From contig JAMNZB010000065.1 of assembly GCA_023622515.1 (NCBI GenBank), positions 8,875 to 72,874 of the forward strand: 64,000 nucleotides of DNA. The letters are read 5' to 3'. Position numbers and translations under genes: made by a program. How positions within the stretch are numbered: the stretch's first letter is position 1; the number at the start of each line of letters is the position of its first letter. This document shows, piece after piece, positions 5,516 to 24,808 of this stretch. This DNA is from Bacillota bacterium (lineage in GTDB: Bacteria > Bacillota > Clostridia > Saccharofermentanales > DTU023). The notes under the pieces are model-generated. The model had not been told where the DNA came from and ran no database searches. It saw only the letters and a program-made list of their open reading frames with translations.

Positions 5516-5884
5516 ATGGCACGTATCGCTGGGGTAGATTTACCTAATGAAAAACGTGTAGAGGTTGGCTTGACCTATATATATGGAATTGGTCGCGCAA
5601 CGTCTAAACTAATTTTAGAAGCATGTGAAATTAATCCGGATACTAGGGTTAAGGACCTTAGTGAAGATGAAATTTCGAAGATTAGAGATGAGATTGATCG
5701 TTCTTACCATGTTGAAGGCGATCTTCGTCGTGAAATCGGTATGAACTTAAAACGTTTACAGGAAATAGGTTCATATCGTGGTCGTCGCCACAGAATGGGC
5801 TTACCCGTTAGAGGTCAAAGAACAAAGACCAATGCACGGACAAGAAAAGGTCCCGGTGCAATGGGTAAACGCAAGAAAAGATAG
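5516..5884 (+). CDS. rpsM: 30S ribosomal protein S13
   Basis: [30 protein letters not shown]... is the S13 N-terminus; GGAGG RBS upstream of ATG 5516; the track ORF (from 5435) is an upstream TTG artefact. Confidence 0.95.
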
Positions 5885-5894
5885 GAGTCTGTAA

Positions 5895-6305
5895 ATGTCA
5901 AGAAATCCAAGAAGAGGCTCTGCTAAGGGCGGACGCGTAAGAAGAAGAGATAGAAAAAATATTGATTCCGGTATAGTGCATATTCACTCTACCTTTAATA
6001 ATACTATTGTTACGATTACCGATACCCAAGGAAATGTTATTGCTTGGTCCAGTGCAGGCGCACAGGGTATGAGAGGTTCACGTAAGAACACCCCTTTTGC
6101 TGCACAACTTTCTTCTGAAACGGCAGCCAAAAAAGCAATGGAACATGGTCTTAGAACAGTTGAAGTAAATGTAAAGGGGCCCGGCGCCGGTCGTGAATCC
6201 GCCATACGTGCGCTTGCTACAGCCGGCTTAGAAGTTACCGTTATCCGTGATGTTACACCTATTCCCCATAACGGATGTCGTCCCCCGAAACGTCGTAGAG
6301 TATAG
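5895..6305 (+). CDS. rpsK: 30S ribosomal protein S11
   Basis: ...[30 protein letters not shown]...[16 protein letters not shown] is S11. Confidence 0.95.
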
Positions 6306-6316
6306 AGGAGTTAAGA

Positions 6317-6934
6317 ATGGCAAAATATACTGATGCTACTTGTCGCCTTTGCAGACGAGAAAATGATAAATTATTTTTAAAGGGTGATCGTTGTTATTCG
6401 AATAAATGTGCTATGGTTCGCCGTAAAGGCCCCCCTGGCCAAAATGTTGGAAGAAGACGGAAAGAGTCTGAATACGGTCGCCAATTACGGGCAAAACAAA
6501 AAACAAAACGCTTCTATGGTGTTTTAGAGAAACAATTCCGCAAGACATACGCAAGGGCTGAACAAATGTCCGGCATTACCGGTGAAAATCTCTTGCAGCT
6601 CTTGGAACGTCGCTTTGATAATGTTGTTTATCGTTTGGGTTTTGCCGAATCACGTGCGATGGCCAGACAGCTTGTAACACACGGTCACTTCCATGTAAAT
6701 GGAAAGCGCTTGGATATTCCCTCTGCTACTTTGAATGAGGGTGATGAGATTACTGTCATCGAGCGGTCAAAAAAATTAATGCCTTTTGCTGAATTAGAAG
6801 CAAGCACAACTGTTCCCGCATGGTTAGAAATGGATGTTAACCAGTTAAAGGGTAAAATTGTCAGCTTGCCAACTCGTGAAGAAATTGATATTAATGTTGA
6901 AGAAACACTAATTGTTGAGCTTTACTCGAAATAA
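6317..6934 (+). CDS. rpsD: 30S ribosomal protein S4
   Basis: [31 protein letters not shown] (zinc-type S4 N-terminus), S4 RNA-binding domain ...[26 protein letters not shown]. Confidence 0.95.
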
Positions 6935-6975
6935 TTAGCTTGTTTGTTGTGACATTGCCACTAAAGGAGGCCTAA

Positions 6976-7932
6976 GTGTTAGATATAAAAGTTCCTACAA
7001 TTGAATGCCTGAAACATAGTGAAAACGGCTTCTACGGCAAGTATAGTTTTGAACCGTTAGAGCGGGGATATGGTACCACTCTTGGTAATGCCTTGAGACG
7101 GGTCTTATTATCCTCCCTACCGGGTGCTGCAGTGACAGCGCTTCGAGTTGAACATGTATATCATGAATTTTCTACCATTCCCGGTGTAATTGAGGATATG
7201 ACTGAGGTTATCCTCAATGTTAAGTCAATACGCGCTCGCGTACATTCTGATGGCCCGAAAACGGCTCAAATCAAAGTTGAAAAAGGGAAAAGCGGTCCGA
7301 TTACCGCTGGAGATATTATTCATGACGATGAACTGGAAATCATCAATGAAGATCAAGTTATTTTTACGGCTAATGGAGATTCAGAGATTTATGTTGAATT
7401 TACCTTTGTCAAAGGCGTAGGCTATAAGAGTTCAGAGGAAAATAAGTGGCCTCATCAACCTATCGGTGTTATTCCGATTGATTCTATCTTTAACCCTGTA
7501 AGAAAAGTGAACTATTCTATTGAGAATGCTCGTGTAGGACAGGTAACAGATTTTGACTGTTTGATTTTAGAGATAGAAACGGATGGCACAATAAATACAA
7601 CAGATGCTCTGAAATATGCGGCAAAGCATTTGATTGAGCATTTGAAGCCCTTCACTGTGTTAAACCATGAGGAATTAAGTCAAGGTGAAGAAGAGCTTGA
7701 AATTGTTGAAGAGCATGATGAGGTACATGATACCATTATCGAGGACTTAGATTTTTCTGTTCGTACATACAACTGCCTGAAACGAGCGAATATTAATAAC
7801 GTTGGTGATCTGATTGCTCGTACGGAAGAAGACATGATGAAAGTAAGAAATTTAGGTAAAAAATCACTTGAAGAAATTGTCTTAAAACTTGATGAGATTG
7901 GCTTAGAGCTTGCAAAAGAAACAGAAGAATAG
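6976..7932 (+). CDS. rpoA: DNA-directed RNA polymerase subunit alpha
   Basis: GTG start after AAAGGAGG; ...FEPLERGYGTTLGNALRRVLLSSLPGAAV... and C-terminal domain ...SVRTYNCLKRANINNVGDL... Confidence 0.95.
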   Translation: MLDIKVPTIECLKHSENGFYGKYSFEPLERGYGTTLGNALRRVLLSSLPGAAVTALRVEHVYHEFSTIPGVIEDMTEVILNVKSIRARVHSDGPKTAQIKVEKGKSGPITAGDIIHDDELEIINEDQVIFTANGDSEIYVEFTFVKGVGYKSSEENKWPHQPIGVIPIDSIFNPVRKVNYSIENARVGQVTDFDCLILEIETDGTINTTDALKYAAKHLIEHLKPFTVLNHEELSQGEEELEIVEEHDEVHDTIIEDLDFSVRTYNCLKRANINNVGDLIARTEEDMMKVRNLGKKSLEEIVLKLDEIGLELAKETEE

Positions 7933-19778: not shown

Positions 19779-19840
19779 AGAGTAGGTCCTTTTTAGGCTA
19801 GTTATACAGTGACGAAGTTGCTTAAACTGGCAAAAAGATA

Positions 19841-19871
19841 GGCAGAAGATGAATCAAATTCAACTTCTGCC
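19841..19871. terminator. Hairpin GGCAGAAG / CTTCTGCC (15-nt loop); best read on the - strand, where a T run follows it (likely the original tRNA-Ala terminator, now separated by the insertion)
   Basis: Inverted repeat 19841-19848 / 19864-19871; - strand continues TATCTTTTTG; lies next to the orphan tRNA 3' fragment. Confidence 0.6.
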
Positions 19872-19873
19872 TA

Positions 19874-19891
19874 TTTGGTGGAGAATAAGGG
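19874..19891. repeat. attL: TTTGGTGGAGAATAAGGG (orphan copy of tRNA-Ala positions 61-76 plus 2 nt)
   Basis: Exact 18/18 match to 24731-24748. Confidence 0.9.
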
Positions 19892-19993
19892 TTGTAAATT
19901 CGCCACTTAAAACAAAAACATTGAAAGCTTGAAACCTTTGATTTAAAAGGATTACAAGACTTTTAGCAAAGAGAGCTTTACATTAAAAAAGCA

Positions 19994-20032
19994 AAGTGTT
20001 TAGATTAAACCTAAACACTTTTCTAAACACTT
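19994..20032. repeat. Three copies of CTAAACACTT (one inverted at 19994-20003, two direct at 20011-20020 and 20023-20032); candidate integrase arm-type sites
   Basis: 26-bp block AAACCTAAACACTTTTCTAAACACTT (20007-20032) recurs exactly at 24633-24658, just after the int stop codon. Confidence 0.6.
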
Positions 20033-20132
20033 TTGAAAGCAATTTGCCCCCATAGACAAATCACTATCACCATAACAAGAAAATTTTTAATAATATTGTT
20101 CTTGCTGGCTTTTTCTTTAATGGTAACACAAT

Positions 20133-20328
20133 CCCGGAGGGAACTTACCTAAACTAGGCACAGAATGCTATCTAGATAACGTTTGTTTGCCTTGATGATA
20201 CCCCTCATGCACTTTTTAAAAGAATTGATTTTAGGCTTGTTTTTAAGCTGAATGTGGGGAAGTGGCTTTCTAAGGGTGAAACTTGCCCGGAGGGAACTTA
20301 CCGGAAGCGTATTCCCGGAGGGAACTTA
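20133..20328 (+). repeat. Three direct copies of CCCGGAGGGAACTTA(CC) at 20133, 20286 and 20314; iteron-like
   Basis: Read directly in an ORF-free stretch downstream of the rep/loader operon; core CCGGAGG recurs at 20625-20633, 22416-22434 and 22445-22453. Confidence 0.7.
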
Positions 20329-20390
20329 GAAAGAAAAAAGCTTCCTCGCTTCGTTCTCGTTTTTCGTTGCTCTGCCGTTGCTTAAGTATC

Positions 20391-20476
20391 ATTTTCTTTG
20401 TTCGCTATTTGTTTAAGCTATATTTTATTTTTACAGTTTAGCTGTAATGATGTCATTAAATTTTTACGCGCGCGCG
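20391..20476. other. AT-rich stretch ending in (CG)5 alternating tract; candidate DNA-unwinding region of the element origin
   Basis: ~75 nt very AT-rich (…TTTGTTTAAGCTATATTTTATTTTTACAG…AAATTTTTA) followed by CGCGCGCGCG at 20467-20476; next to the iterons. Confidence 0.4.
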
Positions 20477-20560
20477 TGGGTGTTTGCTTTGTCGTGTACC
20501 CCCTCCGACAGTCGCCCCCTAAAACTTTTGCGCTTTTTTTACCCTGTACCCTTAATTAGA

Positions 20561-20586
20561 AAAGCCCTCTGATAAGGGCTTTTAAA
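20561..20586 (-). terminator. Terminator of the leftward cro-xis-rep-loader transcription unit
   Basis: AAAGCCCT / AGGGCTTT stem (20561-20568 / 20575-20582); on the - strand it is followed by TTTTC. Confidence 0.65.
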
Positions 20587-20649
20587 CAAGGCTATGGCGT
20601 TAGATTGTTTTAGTTAGGTATTATGCCTCCGGGTTGCCTCTCGGCTTTC

Positions 20650-21210
20650 TTATGGTTTTTCTAGTACAAGGATTTCTTTTTCCTCTTGTTCATCATCAAT
20701 AAATACTTGTTTATCATATTTTTCTAGTAACTTTTGAATCGCTTTAGGCCTTTGTAATTTTAGCTTTTCTTCTTTGGTAAACTCATTGAATGCGTCTCGA
20801 AATTGCGCAAATTTTATAGAGTTTTCGCTTTCTTGCATGACGCAATATTCACGATAACCAAAATCATTAACAACTCTTTTTACTTCTATTGGTAGTGCCT
20901 TTAATCCTTCGTCTTGTCTGTATAGGCCATATGTTTTAATATTAGCCATAAGAATACCCCACCCTTCGTTTGCCGTCATTTGTTTTCCTCTGTGTAGGTC
21001 AACAACTCTAGAACGTATATCGGCAATTGTAGGGGGGTATTTTTCTGTTGCAAGCCACTCAACTAATGTAATGTAAACCGCTTTATACTCTAAATCTTTT
21101 AAAGTTGTGTGCCATATTGTTATAAGTTCTTTGCTAGGTCTTTGAACGAAGTTTTTTGAATAACTTTCTCCGATAATTGCTAATAGAACTTGTGTCTCTT
21201 GTTTTGTCAT
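20650..21210 (-). CDS. Replicative-helicase loader/inhibitor-like protein (SPP1 G39P-like N-terminal domain)
   Basis: 186 aa; LLAIIGESYSKNF...W...LKDLEYKAVYITLVEWLATEKYPPTIADIR matches my recollection of the G39P family pattern (...Y..F...W...L.D..Y......KFPPTIAEI); overlaps the rep stop by 4 nt. Confidence 0.55.
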   Translation of the reverse strand: MTKQETQVLLAIIGESYSKNFVQRPSKELITIWHTTLKDLEYKAVYITLVEWLATEKYPPTIADIRSRVVDLHRGKQMTANEGWGILMANIKTYGLYRQDEGLKALPIEVKRVVNDFGYREYCVMQESENSIKFAQFRDAFNEFTKEEKLKLQRPKAIQKLLEKYDKQVFIDDEQEEKEILVLEKP

Positions 21211-22034
21211 ATTTCTATCTCCATAATTTCTTCAAAGTATGATTTTTCTTTTTTGCTCTCTTTTTCTTTAGGTTTGATGATTACTTGATTAAGATATTTT
21301 TCAAAATTACTAGGTCTAAATAAAGTTGTTGGGTTTAAATGTTTTTCAAAATCTGTACCAATCCATTCGTTAGCCTTCTTGTCTATAACTGTTCTAAAAT
21401 CTTCAATGGTATGGCCTTCATTTAAACGGCCATTTATATTCTTTCTTGTTTCCTTGGTTGTTGGCTTATAATTTGTACCGCAACGCTCGTTTAAGTAGTC
21501 AATTATCTCTTTATATGGTTGTTCATCAGGGAAACTCCTTTCTTTATCTATAGTATTAACTGTGTTATTAGAAATTGTAGTATTAGACTGTATTATTCCC
21601 TTATGCATATCTGCTATGGGGGGTATGTCATATCTGCTATGGGGGGTCATGTCACATATGCTATGGGGGTCATTGCATATATGAGAGGGAGGCATGTCAT
21701 ATCTGCTATGGGTCATGTCACATATGCTATGGGGGTCTGTTTCTTGATTAGTAACATAAATTCTCCTTTCGACAACTACATTATTTTCATTTTTTATGCT
21801 ATCCCTTTTTATGTAACCGGCTTTTTCAAGCTTGGATAGCCTTCTGTTTATTGTGCTTATGCTTTTACTGAACTTATTGGCAAAATACCTATTACTTGCA
21901 TAGCAAAAACCTTTCAGCTGCGATAGGGCTATAATCTCTGCGTAAACTAGCTTTGTACCATCATCAATAGAATCATCAGTTAAAATATCACTGTTGATAT
22001 TTAGATAGTGCTTTTTTGCCTTTTCTTTACTCAT
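21207..22034 (-). CDS. Phage-type replication initiator: N-terminal winged-HTH + C-terminal conserved phage domain (TIGR02220 / DnaD-like)
   Basis: C-terminus EIIDYLNERCGTNYKPTTKETRKNINGRLNEGHTIEDFRTVIDKKANEW...HLNPTTLFRPSNFEKYLNQ fits the phage conserved C-terminal domain; central peptide repeats come from DNA tandem repeats. Confidence 0.7.
   Translation of the reverse strand: MSKEKAKKHYLNINSDILTDDSIDDGTKLVYAEIIALSQLKGFCYASNRYFANKFSKSISTINRRLSKLEKAGYIKRDSIKNENNVVVERRIYVTNQETDPHSICDMTHSRYDMPPSHICNDPHSICDMTPHSRYDIPPIADMHKGIIQSNTTISNNTVNTIDKERSFPDEQPYKEIIDYLNERCGTNYKPTTKETRKNINGRLNEGHTIEDFRTVIDKKANEWIGTDFEKHLNPTTLFRPSNFEKYLNQVIIKPKEKESKKEKSYFEEIMEIEI
21606..21740. repeat. Six imperfect tandem units (~21-26 bp, CATAT(CT)GCTATGGGGG(G)TCATGT..) inside the initiator gene
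   Basis: Read directly; encodes repeated DPHSICDMT/HSRYDMPP peptides; core CTATGGGGG also found at 22079-22088, 23427-23440 and inverted at 20044-20057. Confidence 0.85.
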
Positions 22035-22114
22035 GTTGTTTGCCGTTCTTCCTTAACTGCCTTCTTGTTATTGCTCGCCTATGGGGGCTTTATTTCTTTT
22101 TGCGGTCAATAGGT

Positions 22115-22381
22115 CTATAACTGGTGTCTTTCAATGAATTCGTGTAATTCTGATTTCTTTATGTACCGTTTGTTGCCAATCTGATAGACATTAAGGCCAT
22201 ACTCTAGCCATTTTGTTAAAGTGGCCTTGCTGGCGTTTATATAATCGGCCGCTTCCTCAAAGGTCAAAAACTCTTTTGTAATCGCTGAATCTCTCCTTGC
22301 TTGTTCTAAGGCTTCTATATATACGCCTTTTACCGTGTCATGTAATTCTGTTAGTAATGCCTCTGAAAAGATTGCTTTCAT
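22115..22381 (-). CDS. Excisionase-family / MerR-like HTH DNA-binding protein
   Basis: 88 aa; C-terminal LTFEEAADYINASKATLTKWLEYGLNVYQIGNKRYIKKSELHEFI matches the excisionase-type HTH_17 pattern. Confidence 0.65.
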   Translation of the reverse strand: MKAIFSEALLTELHDTVKGVYIEALEQARRDSAITKEFLTFEEAADYINASKATLTKWLEYGLNVYQIGNKRYIKKSELHEFIERHQL

Positions 22382-22415
22382 TTAATCCCCCTTTCTTACG
22401 CTCTCGGCTAGGCTT

Positions 22416-22434
22416 CCCGGAGGTTGCCTCCGGG
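22416..22434. promoter_or_regulatory. Perfect palindrome CCCGGAGG-TTG-CCTCCGGG between the cro-like and xis-like genes (RNA hairpin or protein-binding site)
   Basis: 8-bp arms read directly; another CCCTCCGGG half-site at 22445-22453. Confidence 0.6.
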
Positions 22435-22457
22435 TGTTATAGCTCCCTCCGGGTACT

Positions 22458-22652
22458 CTAGTCTTTTATCAATTCTTCGGGTGCTACATTCAAGGCGTTA
22501 GCTATCTTTTTCAGGCTTCTAGGGTGGCATGAGCCTTTCGCTAGAATGCCGCTATAACCTTGACGGCTTAGCCCTGCCCTTTTAGCAAATTGTTCTTGCG
22601 TTTCTCCGGTATCAACTTGAAGTATTTTGATTTTATCTGTGTTTAGTTTCAT
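22458..22652 (-). CDS. Cro-like XRE-family HTH protein
   Basis: 64 aa; ...ETQEQFAKRAGLSRQGYSGILAKG... HTH; divergent from the cI-like gene. Confidence 0.75.
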   Translation of the reverse strand: MKLNTDKIKILQVDTGETQEQFAKRAGLSRQGYSGILAKGSCHPRSLKKIANALNVAPEELIKD

Positions 22653-22695
22653 TCCGCTTGCTCCTTTCGTTAAAGTAAAAAATAAAGCTAATCAT

Positions 22696-22724
22696 ATCTT
22701 AACTTTCTTATTTAGAAATGTCAA
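22696..22724 (-). promoter_or_regulatory. Leftward promoter of the switch (-35 TTGACA, 17 nt, -10 TAAGAT on the - strand)
   Basis: Reverse complement of 22719-22724 = TTGACA and of 22696-22701 = TAAGAT; small inverted repeat TTTCT-N5-AGAAA in the spacer. Confidence 0.55.
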
Positions 22725-22752
22725 GTAAAAACTTGCGCACACTAGGAAACTC

Positions 22753-22771
22753 TTAACATTTTATGTTAGAA
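22753..22771 (+). promoter_or_regulatory. Rightward extended -10 promoter (TGTTAGAAT) overlapped by palindrome TAACAT-TTT-ATGTTA (candidate operator)
   Basis: TAACAT 22753-22758 / ATGTTA 22762-22767; TGT+TAGAAT 22763-22771; 31 nt upstream of the cI-like ATG. Confidence 0.5.
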
Positions 22772-22802
22772 TAAAGCTAGTTCAATAAAGAGGTACTTTA
22801 CT

Positions 22803-23405
22803 ATGTTTGAAACCAAGCTAAGAGAATCTAGGGAAAAAATGAATTTAAGCCAACAAGAAATGGCTGATATTCTTGAAATTAGCGTGTCTACATATAACAA
22901 GTTTGAAAATGGCAGACAATTACCAAGAATTGATGTATTTAAGAGAATATGTACCGCCCTTAAGGTGTCTAGTGATTGGCTACTAGGCATAGGAAGTAAA
23001 TCAGGGAGCAACGTTCAATTAGATTCAACATCAGATATCTTACGCCTTATTTTTGCTCTTGATGATAATGATTATTTTGTTGAACCGTTTCAAGTTTACT
23101 CTGAATTTAATGACTATTATTCCGGAATTGTGATTTTACTTCATGATACTTTTCAAAGTTGGTTAGTTAAAGATGGTTTTTACCATGTAGATGAAAATAC
23201 TCATAATTCATTAGCAAGTAAATTGATGAGATACCGACAACTAAAAACGGCCGTATTTGAAGAAGAATTCCACGGTGATTTCGGTCAAGAAGTTATTTCT
23301 TCATGGCAAAGCAAAGTTCTAGAGGATAATTCTATTAACGTTAACCGCTTTGATGAGAAAATGGGAATAAAAATACTAGCTTATTTTAACGAAAAAACTT
23401 TATAA
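22803..23405 (+). CDS. cI/Stl-like repressor: N-terminal XRE HTH + ~130-aa C-terminal domain of unknown type
   Basis: MNLSQQEMADILEISVSTYNKFENGRQLPRIDVFKRICTALKVSSDWLLG HTH_3 pattern; divergent to the cro-like gene; no S24 peptidase Ser/Lys motif recognised. Confidence 0.7.
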   Translation: MFETKLRESREKMNLSQQEMADILEISVSTYNKFENGRQLPRIDVFKRICTALKVSSDWLLGIGSKSGSNVQLDSTSDILRLIFALDDNDYFVEPFQVYSEFNDYYSGIVILLHDTFQSWLVKDGFYHVDENTHNSLASKLMRYRQLKTAVFEEEFHGDFGQEVISSWQSKVLEDNSINVNRFDEKMGIKILAYFNEKTL

Positions 23406-23458
23406 AATACGCCAATCCTTTTTATCGTCTATGGGGGCAATAGAGAGGATTACAAACA

Positions 23459-24631
23459 ATGGCACAATATAAACAGTACACAAACAAACAAGGCACGTTT
23501 TGGCGTGTCGCTGGTTATCTAGGAACGGACAAGGTAACCGGGAAGCAAGTAAACATTAACAAGAGGGGGTTCACTTCTAAGAGGTCAGCGCAATTATATT
23601 TTGAGCGTGAACGATTGAAATTTGCTGATAGTGATTATAGGACAAGCACTAATGAGGCAAAGAATCCGCTCTTTAGTGAGGTTTACAATGATTGGCTAGA
23701 GCAATACAAGAACACGGTTAAAGAATCAACTTTTGTAAAAACAAAACAACTCTTTGACAATCATATTTGCAAAGCCTTTGGCAACTTGAAAATTAAAAAC
23801 ATATCTAGTAGCTATCTACAAAAACAGGTTAACAAGTGGCATAAACAATTCGCTCAATATCGCAAGGTATATAACTACACTTGTAAAATTTTAGATTTTG
23901 CTATGTTGCATGGCTACATCAAGGACAATCCTAAGAATAGAATAGTCATACCGACAAATAAGCTGGACTATAACAACAAGAAAAAGAAGAAAGGCAGAAA
24001 AGAGTTCTACTCAAAAGGCGAACTAAAAGAATTTTTGGAAGCGGTCAAAAAGGATTGCCCTTTTATGTGGTATACATTCTTTAGGCTAATAGCCTTTACA
24101 GGCCTTAGAAAAGGGGAAATGCTCGCCCTTACATGGAATGATATCAACTTTAAAGACAAGTGCCTTACGGTCAACAAATCGCTTGCTACAGGCGAAAATA
24201 ATGAGCTTATTATTCAAAGCCCTAAGACTGAAAGTAGTATCCGGACTATATCGCTTGATAAAGGAACGCTAAGTACACTTAAGCAATGGAAAAGAGAACA
24301 AGCAGAATTATTACTTGCTTTTGGCTTTAATGCTTTAAGGAATAATCAGCTGATATTCTCCAAGCCCCATAATAATGAGGTTTTCTATCTGAACAAGCCT
24401 AGAAGCGTTTTAGTTAAGGTATGTGATGATAATAATTTGCCTAGAATCCATATACACGGCTTCCGGCATACTCATTGTTCATTGCTCTTTGAAGCTGGCG
24501 TACCGGTTAAAGATGTTCAAGAACGCTTAGGCCATTCAGACATTCAAACGACAATGAACATTTATACCCACGTATCACAAGATAGCAAAGATAGGTCAGC
24601 AGAACTCTTTCAGGCATACATCAATTTCTAG
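23459..24631 (+). CDS. int: Tyrosine site-specific integrase
   Basis: 390 aa; SAM-like N-domain; catalytic region ...TGLRKGEMLAL..., HGFRHTHCSLLFEAG, LGHSDIQTTMNIYTHV (R..HxxR..Y); adjacent to a tRNA gene. Confidence 0.9.
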   Translation: MAQYKQYTNKQGTFWRVAGYLGTDKVTGKQVNINKRGFTSKRSAQLYFERERLKFADSDYRTSTNEAKNPLFSEVYNDWLEQYKNTVKESTFVKTKQLFDNHICKAFGNLKIKNISSSYLQKQVNKWHKQFAQYRKVYNYTCKILDFAMLHGYIKDNPKNRIVIPTNKLDYNNKKKKKGRKEFYSKGELKEFLEAVKKDCPFMWYTFFRLIAFTGLRKGEMLALTWNDINFKDKCLTVNKSLATGENNELIIQSPKTESSIRTISLDKGTLSTLKQWKREQAELLLAFGFNALRNNQLIFSKPHNNEVFYLNKPRSVLVKVCDDNNLPRIHIHGFRHTHCSLLFEAGVPVKDVQERLGHSDIQTTMNIYTHVSQDSKDRSAELFQAYINF

Positions 24632-24636
24632 GAAAC

Positions 24637-24658
24637 CTAAACACTTTTCTAAACACTT
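24637..24658 (+). repeat. Two direct CTAAACACTT copies (24637-24646, 24649-24658) next to attR; candidate arm-type sites
   Basis: Exact match to the block at 20007-20032. Confidence 0.6.
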
Positions 24659-24732
24659 ACCCATAAGGACAAAAAGCAAAAAGCTTGAAACGCTGGCGTA
24701 TCAGCACTTTCAAGCTCTTCACTATATCGGTT

Positions 24733-24808
<76 letters not shown>

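Follow-up and report, generated by a model that had tools for sequence, protein, structure and literature searches.

Within a 64,000-nucleotide stretch of genomic DNA from a Bacillota bacterium (contig JAMNZB010000065.1 of assembly GCA_023622515.1; hereafter the window), a 4875-bp element occupies positions 19874-24748, flanked by exact 18-bp direct repeats (TTTGGTGGAGAATAAGGG). With moderate confidence, we propose that it is an integrative element, intact and recently mobile, whose chassis is that of Gram-positive satellites of the phage-inducible chromosomal island (PICI) type and which has been cut down to integration, control and replication. To judge from its gene content, the element consists of this PICI-type chassis and a phage-derived initiator/loader cassette, and of nothing else.

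Results

The repeat has two exact copies in the 64 kb, at 19874-19891 and 24731-24748 (both given on the plus strand), and two matches were obtained in 0 of 100 dinucleotide-preserving shuffles. A host tRNA-Ala(GGC) gene, the integration target, is located by ARAGORN and Rfam on the minus strand at 24733-24808. The right copy, the tRNA-proximal att core in both the repeat search and the ARAGORN prediction, is therefore the 3' end of this tRNA. The left copy, the distal att core, is consequently an orphan tRNA 3' end, and the same sequence recurs in a sibling element described below. On its outer side the orphan directly adjoins a hairpin (19838-19874, minus strand) with 17-nt arms that are 94% complementary, a 3-nt loop and a T-run after it on the tRNA strand, which we read as the host tRNA-Ala terminator displaced by the insertion. 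These ends had been proposed in an initial annotation made from the sequence alone, and ARAGORN, Rfam, the shuffles and the hairpin search all uphold them. The reconstructed attP junction reads ...CACTATATCGG-TTTGGTGGAGAATAAGGG-TTGTAAATTCGCC... and the attB junction ...CTTCTGCCTA-TTTGGTGGAGAATAAGGG-AATCGAACCC... An Rfam scan of the element returned the tRNA only. The element also stands out in composition, with a GC content of 0.36 against 0.40-0.47 in the flanks and the highest tetranucleotide deviation of all 4.9-kb segments of the window (0.318, median 0.146), a departure that the initial annotation had named as a check on its reading.

Both ends carry a further repeat, CTAAACACTT, whose five copies in the 64 kb all lie at the ends of the element and include an exact 26-bp repeat. 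Two of them (24637 and 24649) lie just past the stop codon of the integrase gene (int), in an int-proximal attP arm (24632-24730) that also holds a AAAGCTTGAAAC box and a hairpin (24688-24709); the other three (19994, minus; 20011, plus; 20023, plus) lie in the distal arm (19892-20073), together with one AAAGCTTGAAAC box and one CTATGGGGG box (20047, minus). The most plausible reading of the copies is that of arm-type integrase sites on either side of the attP core. Taken together, the predicted arm sites and the junctions establish, at the level of DNA sequence, site-specific integration at the tRNA-Ala 3' end through an 18-bp core and five arm-type sites. The hairpin at 24688-24709, which is supplied by the element, now follows tRNA-Ala and terminates both this gene and int. 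A 22-mer of the arm site had no match in IMG/VR, and two metagenome matches were dismissed as chance, since those sequences have nothing else in common with the element.

Two related genomes were recovered through host proteins, the Logan assembly ERR14964776 (loci L004 and L005) and the metagenome-assembled genome (MAG) GCA_040364315.1 (loci L003 and L006). In the Logan assembly the site is empty, and the hairpin is directly followed by the 18-mer and the rest of tRNA-Ala; the terminator thus abuts the tRNA 3' end in L004, precisely as the initial annotation had predicted. In the MAG the same tRNA site is occupied by a sibling element, a further copy of the kind that the annotation had proposed looking for. 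Locus L006 contains its left junction and ORF-free DNA (ORF, open reading frame), 96% identical to the window, and L003 the C-terminal half of the integrase, the spacer between int and the tRNA (177 of 179 nt identical), the core and the tRNA. The sibling's far arm (19874-20073) shows 2 differences (198/200 identical). The ORF-free DNA is a mosaic in this comparison: positions 20074-20428 are ~8% diverged, with indels of 12, 11 and 1 bp, whereas the arm and positions 20429-20593 are near-invariant.

The sibling's host is ~9% diverged from that of the window. Synonymous changes per codon between window and MAG amount to 0.038 in int and to 0.11-0.19 in three host genes, so that synonymous divergence in int is 3-5 times below that of the flanking host genes; across 182 codons, int differs by 7 synonymous and 2 non-synonymous changes, where the host rate would predict ~28 synonymous ones. 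It follows that the element family is much younger than the divergence of its hosts, and the codon comparison demonstrates that it moved horizontally after the hosts had diverged. The same kind of evidence shows purifying selection on int. Comparison of a single gene, that of the S11 peptidase, shows the MAG and Logan hosts to be 95.7% identical and nearer to each other than either is to the window host. One of these two hosts being occupied and the other empty, close relatives thus differ in the occupancy of this site.

In the sibling, the end of an IstB-like ORF cuts into int. The gene breaks off at approximately residue 205 of the 390 in the window integrase (L003:1-123; JBEFFD010007430.1), and the remnant is preceded by an IstB-like C-terminus (…HKAHVLDMSGDSYRIKE, followed by a stop codon) and a short direct repeat (GTGGACCATTTTTC); it looks as though an insertion of the IS21 family broke int and also the assembly. 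A check for disruption found int and rep undisrupted in the window, the disrupted int being that of the sibling only. Outside the element, the host intergenic DNA from the S11 peptidase gene to the tRNA terminator is ~190-260 bp shorter in the window (19828-19837) than in both related genomes (L004:11214-11364 and L006:2106-2352), a deletion bordered by GGC(G/A)AAAA-AGG-like repeats.

Six ORFs lie between the repeats. All are intact, and all six family assignments exceed the curated cut-offs of Pfam, PHROGs and NCBIfam against which the gene calls of the initial annotation were scored. The tyrosine integrase (390 aa; 23459-24631, plus strand) combines Phage_integrase, SAM_3 and Arm-DNA-bind_4 domains and carries the motifs TGLRKGE, HGFRHTH and NIYTH. 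Running in the same direction, the gene for a cI-like repressor (200 aa; 22803-23405, plus strand) encodes an N-terminal HTH_3 domain and a C-terminal portion of ~130 aa that yielded no family match and no S24 peptidase domain in these three collections; a single-sequence AlphaFold model of the repressor was unusable (pLDDT 36). A Cro-like HTH_3 protein (64 aa; 22458-22652, minus strand) opens the leftward operon, followed by an excisionase-type protein, Xis (88 aa; 22115-22381, minus strand; HTH_17, PF12728; TIGR01764 at 39.3 bits, cut-off 28.8), the replication initiator Rep (275 aa; 21207-22034, minus strand) and a G39P-type helicase loader (186 aa; 20650-21210, minus strand).

Rep consists of an N-terminal winged helix (HTH_36) and a C-terminal, DnaD-like Phg_2220_C/TIGR02220 domain (TIGR02220 at 103 bits, cut-off 66.65). 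Its nearest homologue is only 36-42% identical, and an exact look-up of the protein in a contig index found no record. The loader, whose start codon overlaps the rep stop codon by 4 nt, matches Inhibitor_G39P (PF11417, 28.2 bits, cut-off 22) and, in PHROGs, phrog_9804 (9e-30) and phrog_2289 ('helicase loader'). It belongs to a family of 1429 clusters; a 40-member profile of this family matches the SPP1 G39P structure (PDB 1NO1) with an E value of 3e-10, and an AlphaFold model of the loader (pLDDT 93.9) superimposes on the same structure with a Foldseek TM score of 0.84, normalized to 1NO1, and a root-mean-square deviation of 1.6 Å over 67 residues. A helical C-terminal extension of ~100 aa beyond the G39P portion is kept across the loader family.

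In agreement with the initial annotation, ORF, domain and PHROG scans and PADLOC identified no packaging, lysis, structural or cargo gene among the six ORFs; PADLOC returned generic helix-turn-helix (HTH) matches only and no defense gene. The replication module, which that annotation had called complete, lacks both helicase and primase, as no domain of either kind was found among the element's ORFs in Pfam, PHROGs and NCBIfam. The five proteins other than the integrase are singletons among 15 billion sequences. The best named relatives of the host's PheT are "Eubacteriales bacterium" MAGs of just 59-61% identity, which places the host in a poorly sampled, uncultured lineage of Clostridia and partly accounts for the singletons.

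Where do the relatives of these proteins occur? A scan of a genome collection with the integrase returned 80 loci, and many of these are islands of 6-12 kb that sit at the 3' end of a tRNA or tmRNA gene. The closest integrases (64-66% identity) lie in two loci of Clostridiaceae MAGs, L007 (66%) and L008. Both encode xis homologues (E 1e-29), and L008 has homologues of cI, alignable over the N-terminal 87 aa only, and of cro. The gene order that the initial annotation had likened to that of PICIs and Staphylococcus aureus pathogenicity islands (SaPIs) thus finds homologous int, xis, cI and cro genes in PICI-like islands. Locus L007 is a 10.6-kb island of the order int-cI-cro-small ORF-HTH_17-VapE-like-HTH-PIN_8-methylase, without packaging genes. 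In L008 the gene beside xis encodes a Phage_rep_org_N replisome-organizer domain, and this locus therefore also has a phage-type initiator. A ~12.1-kb island in tRNA-Ala(GGC) of Trichococcus pasteurii (L019; NZ_FONM01000003.1) encodes, in order, int, cI, cro, xis, Rep (Phg_2220_C), an AAA+ loader, four unknowns, a TMP_3 protein and a small terminase (Terminase_2); by its gene content, it represents a textbook PICI layout with the initiator family of the window element. The related islands carry their own tandem arm-type repeats at both ends.

Several features of these islands deserve mention in their own right. Between cro and xis, L007 (8798-8983) and L008 (1608-1814) contain a Cys-rich, zinc-finger-like ORF of 61-68 aa (…LDCTCNQT..CEIKSCPLWRYRTGKE…) that is absent from the window element, which has a CCCGGAGG-rich spacer in its place. 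In T. pasteurii two integrase-bearing islands (L016 and L019) stand in tandem with a partial tRNA 3' end between them (…ATGTATGGAGACGATGGG), and the inner island encodes a 694-aa TMP_3 tape-measure protein just upstream of the small terminase, which is odd for a satellite. Three 6-kb islands (L018, L027 and L049) were rejected as members of the same family, being heterogeneous or decayed and of unrelated content despite their related integrases; inspection of translations suggests sigma-factor-like proteins in L049. The 6.2-kb tmRNA island of Enterococcus sp. UD-01 (L018) has primase-like gene fragments and a 545-aa protein (5737-7374) that appears toxin-like from inspection of its translation only, and may serve as an example of a decayed or cargo-dominated island of the same integrase family.

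Relatives of Rep and the loader occur in a complete phage (P0008) and in a cassette of the order SSB-initiator-loader-DUF1064 (P0254; SSB, single-stranded DNA-binding protein), which shows the same 4-nt overlap of initiator and loader and has no helicase gene. We therefore looked upon the initiator and G39P-type loader as what their neighborhoods indicate, a phage-derived cassette without a helicase gene. The two closest loader homologues, each 41% identical, are those of P0254 and of L090, a 1223-bp contig from Logan run ERR14964773, numbered next to the empty-site run ERR14964776. In L090 the loader follows an initiator of a different type, with the C-terminal motif FDRFWAAYPNKKGK, and the loader therefore pairs with several initiator families. 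An IMG/VR scan with the loader protein found no relatives.

Such Rep and loader families, typical of phage replication modules, would also fit the early arm of a defective prophage that lost its late region and kept both att sites by chance. The closest relatives of int, xis, cI and cro, however, reside in 10-12-kb islands without structural genes. In addition, the ORF-free DNA shows neither a late-gene trace nor a protein-coding signal conserved in the sibling, and when the whole element was compared by blastn with 50,697 phage records, ~150 nt of int matched and nothing else. We consequently give a prophage origin very little credence.

The homology between window and sibling stops exactly at the loader stop codon (20650). 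Where the window has the loader, the sibling carries on the same strand a different ORF, gene X, which belongs to no PHROG or Pfam family and has no homologue among 5.8 billion proteins. Just downstream of the loader stop, window positions 20615-20648 (minus strand) match the last ~25-36 nt of gene X, with an 11-bp deletion and one CCCGGAGG box. Because the 3' end of gene X persists there, recombination has left a scar at the junction of loader and non-coding DNA, through deletion of the distal genes in the window lineage or through an exchange of modules at a gene boundary. We propose that a longer relative gave rise to the 4.9-kb form when its distal genes were lost or replaced. Given the scar, the suggestion of the initial annotation that the element might be a decayed remnant with intact ends carries some weight.

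These observations bear directly on the possibility that the element is a recent deletion derivative of a 10-12-kb PICI-like satellite and an evolutionary dead end, which has lost its distal packaging (terS-type) or cargo genes and, with them, efficient transfer, although excision and replication may have been retained. The gene X remnant right after the loader stop, opposite a different gene in the sibling, is what such a loss would leave; relatives with the same chassis measure 10-12 kb and include L019 with its TerS; the zinc-finger-like gene between cro and xis of L007 and L008 is missing; and the singleton status of the five non-integrase proteins points the same way. Yet every retained ORF and cis site is intact, and a proper terminator closes the operon. 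The breakpoint falls exactly at a gene boundary, which suits module exchange as well as deletion, and gene X, having no homologues, gives the event no direction. Moreover, transfer has been demonstrated for satellites that lack packaging genes (PMC10803314, PMC13376191). On balance, we consider a dead-end derivative a serious possibility, though not a probable one.

The remaining features of the element are regulatory and non-coding. The divergent cro/cI control region (22653-22802), delimited by sequence inspection, contains a repeated TAGCTTTATT motif, and a promoter-like TTGACA-17-TAAGAT precedes cro at 22724-22696. The cro-xis spacer (22382-22457) holds three CCCGGAGG boxes, including a hairpin with a perfect 8-bp stem (CCCGGAGGcaaCCTCCGGG, 22416-22434). 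For the extended motif CCCGGAGG(G/C)A, chance predicts ~1.1 copies across all 64 kb, whereas the element alone has seven and the other 59 kb has six; of the seven, three stand in direct orientation in the ORF-free DNA, the loader stop codon has one and the spacer accounts for three. The motif is kept in the sibling and absent from all chassis relatives, and an IMG/VR scan with a CCCGGAGG iteron pair gave no matches.

Tandem Repeats Finder detected an array of 5.8 copies of a 23-bp iteron (core GCTATGGGGG; 21606-21737) in the region of rep that encodes the linker between the winged-helix and Phg_2220_C domains, where it forms an insertion without counterpart in six homologues. Its period is no multiple of three and the rep frame is nevertheless open, which means that it is as DNA that the repeat is maintained. 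Each of the seven exact CTATGGGGG copies present in the window lies in the element, four of them in the array, one upstream of rep, one upstream of int and one in the far arm. We regard the array, by virtue of these repeats, as the probable origin of replication. An origin inside the initiator gene is a classical layout, known from lambda O, SPP1 gene 38 and TP901-1 rep, and the oriL of SPP1, inside gene 38, parallels the intragenic iterons of the element. The sole IMG/VR match to a pair of these iterons (L091) lies inside a high-GC repeat protein and was set aside as chance.

The initial annotation had instead looked for the origin in the ORF-free DNA (19892-20649, 758 bp). The repeats and AT-rich tracts that it described there are present, and the array in rep is the stronger candidate. 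Only three ORFs, of 41-53 aa, occur in this DNA. Two of them (20283-20441 and 20398-20559) are ruled out as conserved small proteins, as the sibling's indels of 12, 11 and 1 bp break both; the third (20447-20572) sits in the near-invariant block, which makes the comparison uninformative for it. The variable stretch (20074-20428) contains three direct CCCGGAGGGAACTTA repeats (20133, 20286 and 20314) next to AT-rich tracts, and these repeats are candidates for a second iteron set or a protein-binding array. The highly conserved block beyond it (20429-20593), with 1 difference from the sibling in its 165 bp, includes ACGCGCGCGCGTGGG, a GC-rich segment and, at 20562-20585, a bidirectional terminator hairpin that ends the rep operon. 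RNA folding of the block was unremarkable on either strand (z -1.6). The block is a candidate cis site of the pac, cos or oriT type.

Alternatively, the element might be an integrative plasmid-like replicon without any phage parasitism, which would excise and replicate in response to its own cue and spread by natural transformation, by vesicles or by conjugative mobilization from an oriT in the ORF-free DNA. The conserved non-coding block, the lack of packaging and interference genes and the movement of the Streptococcus thermophilus islands known as StCIs by competence (PMC13376191) are compatible with such a lifestyle. On the other hand, Pfam and NCBIfam scans of the element's proteins found no relaxase domain, there is no known oriT (a kind of site that sequence alone does not reveal), all protein families are of phage or satellite type, and PICI-like islands have a homologous control module; we deem a plasmid-like replicon unlikely.

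Discussion

Our comparisons reveal an element that integrates into tRNA-Ala, has relatives among PICI-like islands and belongs to a recently mobile family. We propose the following model for its life cycle. The cI-like repressor, which has no autocleavage domain, would silence the divergent cro-xis-rep-loader operon at the promoter-like site 22724-22696. Repression would be lifted by an external signal, probably a phage-encoded anti-repressor, as for SaPI Stl and the StCIs (PMC13376191), and cro, xis, rep and the loader gene would then be expressed. Xis and Int would excise a circle, Rep would attach to the 23-bp iterons that its own gene contains, and together with the G39P-type loader it would recruit a helicase that the element does not encode, either that of the host or that of a helper. 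Exit from the cell would rely on foreign machinery, most likely headful packaging of ~8-mer concatemers in helper capsids, as in the phage-inducible chromosomal minimalist islands, or PICMIs (PMC10803314), and the virion-encapsidated integrative mobile elements (VEIMEs; PMC9618062), or alternatively DNA uptake after lysis, as for the StCIs (PMC13376191). By analogy with these systems, we infer that the element depends on a helper.

How does the element relate to known satellites? It shares with PICIs an integrase gene and an adjacent divergent repressor/activator pair, after which xis and the replication genes run in a common direction; direct att repeats at a specific tRNA site, with integration at the tRNA 3' end via a short core; tandem arm-type repeats at both ends, as in L019 and L007; and the absence of structural and lysis genes. 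The relationship to PICI-like islands extends to homology of int (45-66% identity), xis, the cI N-terminus and cro. Unlike PICIs, the element lacks terS, ppi, cpm/ccm and any other capsid-redirection, interference or accessory gene, and its 4875 bp fall short of the 10-15 kb of PICIs, phage satellites being typically 7-20 kb long (PMC13376191). PICIs replicate with a primase-helicase (VapE or Pri-Rep) and have their origin downstream of rep, whereas the element encodes an initiator and a G39P-type loader and has its origin candidate inside rep. In the latter respects it recalls the Bacillus phage SPP1, in which the initiator gene is likewise followed by that of a G39P-fold loader. In contrast to the SPP1 series of origin-binding protein (G38P), loader (G39P) and helicase (G40P), no gene for a G40P-type helicase comes after the loader, and the initiator family (HTH_36 and Phg_2220_C) differs.

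The initial annotation had considered an undescribed type of element. Precedents exist, however (PMC10803314, PMC9618062, PMC13376191, PMC10085698), and the element is not of a new kind, as packaging-gene-free and very small satellites have already been published. The PICMIs of Vibrionaceae are defined by a core of Int, AlpA and primase and by integration downstream of fis, and have no packaging genes; PICMI115 comprises 6110 bp and six genes (PMC10803314). With these islands the element shares a size of ~5-6 kb, six genes, an integrase, a small HTH regulator and a replication protein, the lack of packaging and capsid-remodeling genes and, as the expected mode of transfer, packaging of concatemers into full-size capsids. 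The proteins are unrelated, AlpA and a primase in PICMIs contrasting with the cI/cro switch, Xis, Phg_2220_C initiator and G39P-type loader of the element, and the integration sites differ, PICMIs inserting next to fis and the element in tRNA-Ala. PICMI115 has three further genes of unknown function, and PICMI behavior is experimentally established, whereas the element is known from sequence alone.

VEIMEs, whose monomers range from <5 kb to 16.8 kb and which are found in virions as 8-17-mer concatemers (PMC9618062), resemble the element in having an integrase and replication or regulatory genes but no capsid genes. Their hosts are marine Proteobacteria, Cyanobacteria and others, their gene suites differ, and they are defined by their presence in virions. 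StCIs (7-20 kb) lack packaging genes, excise spontaneously, are induced by a phage protein and can spread through natural competence, and at least 16 of 60 carry probable phage-resistance genes (PMC13376191). SatelliteFinder has further identified >6000 three-component 'type C' PICI-like elements (PMC10085698). StCIs and type C/D PICI-like elements have in common with the element integrase, regulatory and replication genes, 16-18-bp repeats, a GC content below that of the host and no packaging genes; unlike StCIs, the element is without any accessory gene and uses another replication module. Overall, we consider the element to resemble PICMIs and VEIMEs in function, by analogy, without any of their defining proteins.

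Several observations weigh against our interpretation. No helper phage, pac/cos site or excised circle has been identified. The evidence for transfer, from int, the arms and the ORF-free DNA, speaks to the mobility of the family, the 4.9-kb form itself aside, because the sibling has a different distal gene. The relatives of Rep and the loader otherwise reside in ordinary phage replication modules, which deprives the cassette of satellite specificity, and phage repressors, too, often have no S24 domain. Finally, the conserved block 20429-20593 found no match in 23-mer scans of IMG/VR and JGI metagenomes or in blastn against annotated phages. We nonetheless favor an intact, recently mobile element on a PICI-type chassis. 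A more specific version of this proposal, a functional cargo-free satellite that would hijack its helper purely through cis-acting DNA, along with a loader capturing a helicase encoded elsewhere, seems doubtful to us, although the conserved block and/or the CCCGGAGG array are candidates for a mimic of a helper's pac or cos site.

What would be the relevance of so small an element? If it were a mere deletion derivative, it would represent an ordinary stage of island decay of little wider interest. Its notable aspects are the extreme reduction, below the 6110 bp of PICMI115 and without any accessory gene, the host lineage and the three-genome comparison, VEIMEs of <5 kb having preceded it in size. 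Occupied, empty and IS-disrupted mosaic sibling sites in three related genomes (IS, insertion sequence) constitute a natural experiment on how satellites shed or swap their distal modules. If the element is indeed a cargo-free satellite of the specific kind considered above, the minimal gene set of a Gram-positive phage satellite would comprise an integrase, a two-protein switch, an excisionase, an initiator and a loader. If the element is functional, it would set the lower bound for a Gram-positive satellite at six genes that serve neither packaging nor interference nor cargo, and would extend the idea of the "minimalist satellite" from marine Proteobacteria to anaerobic Clostridia.

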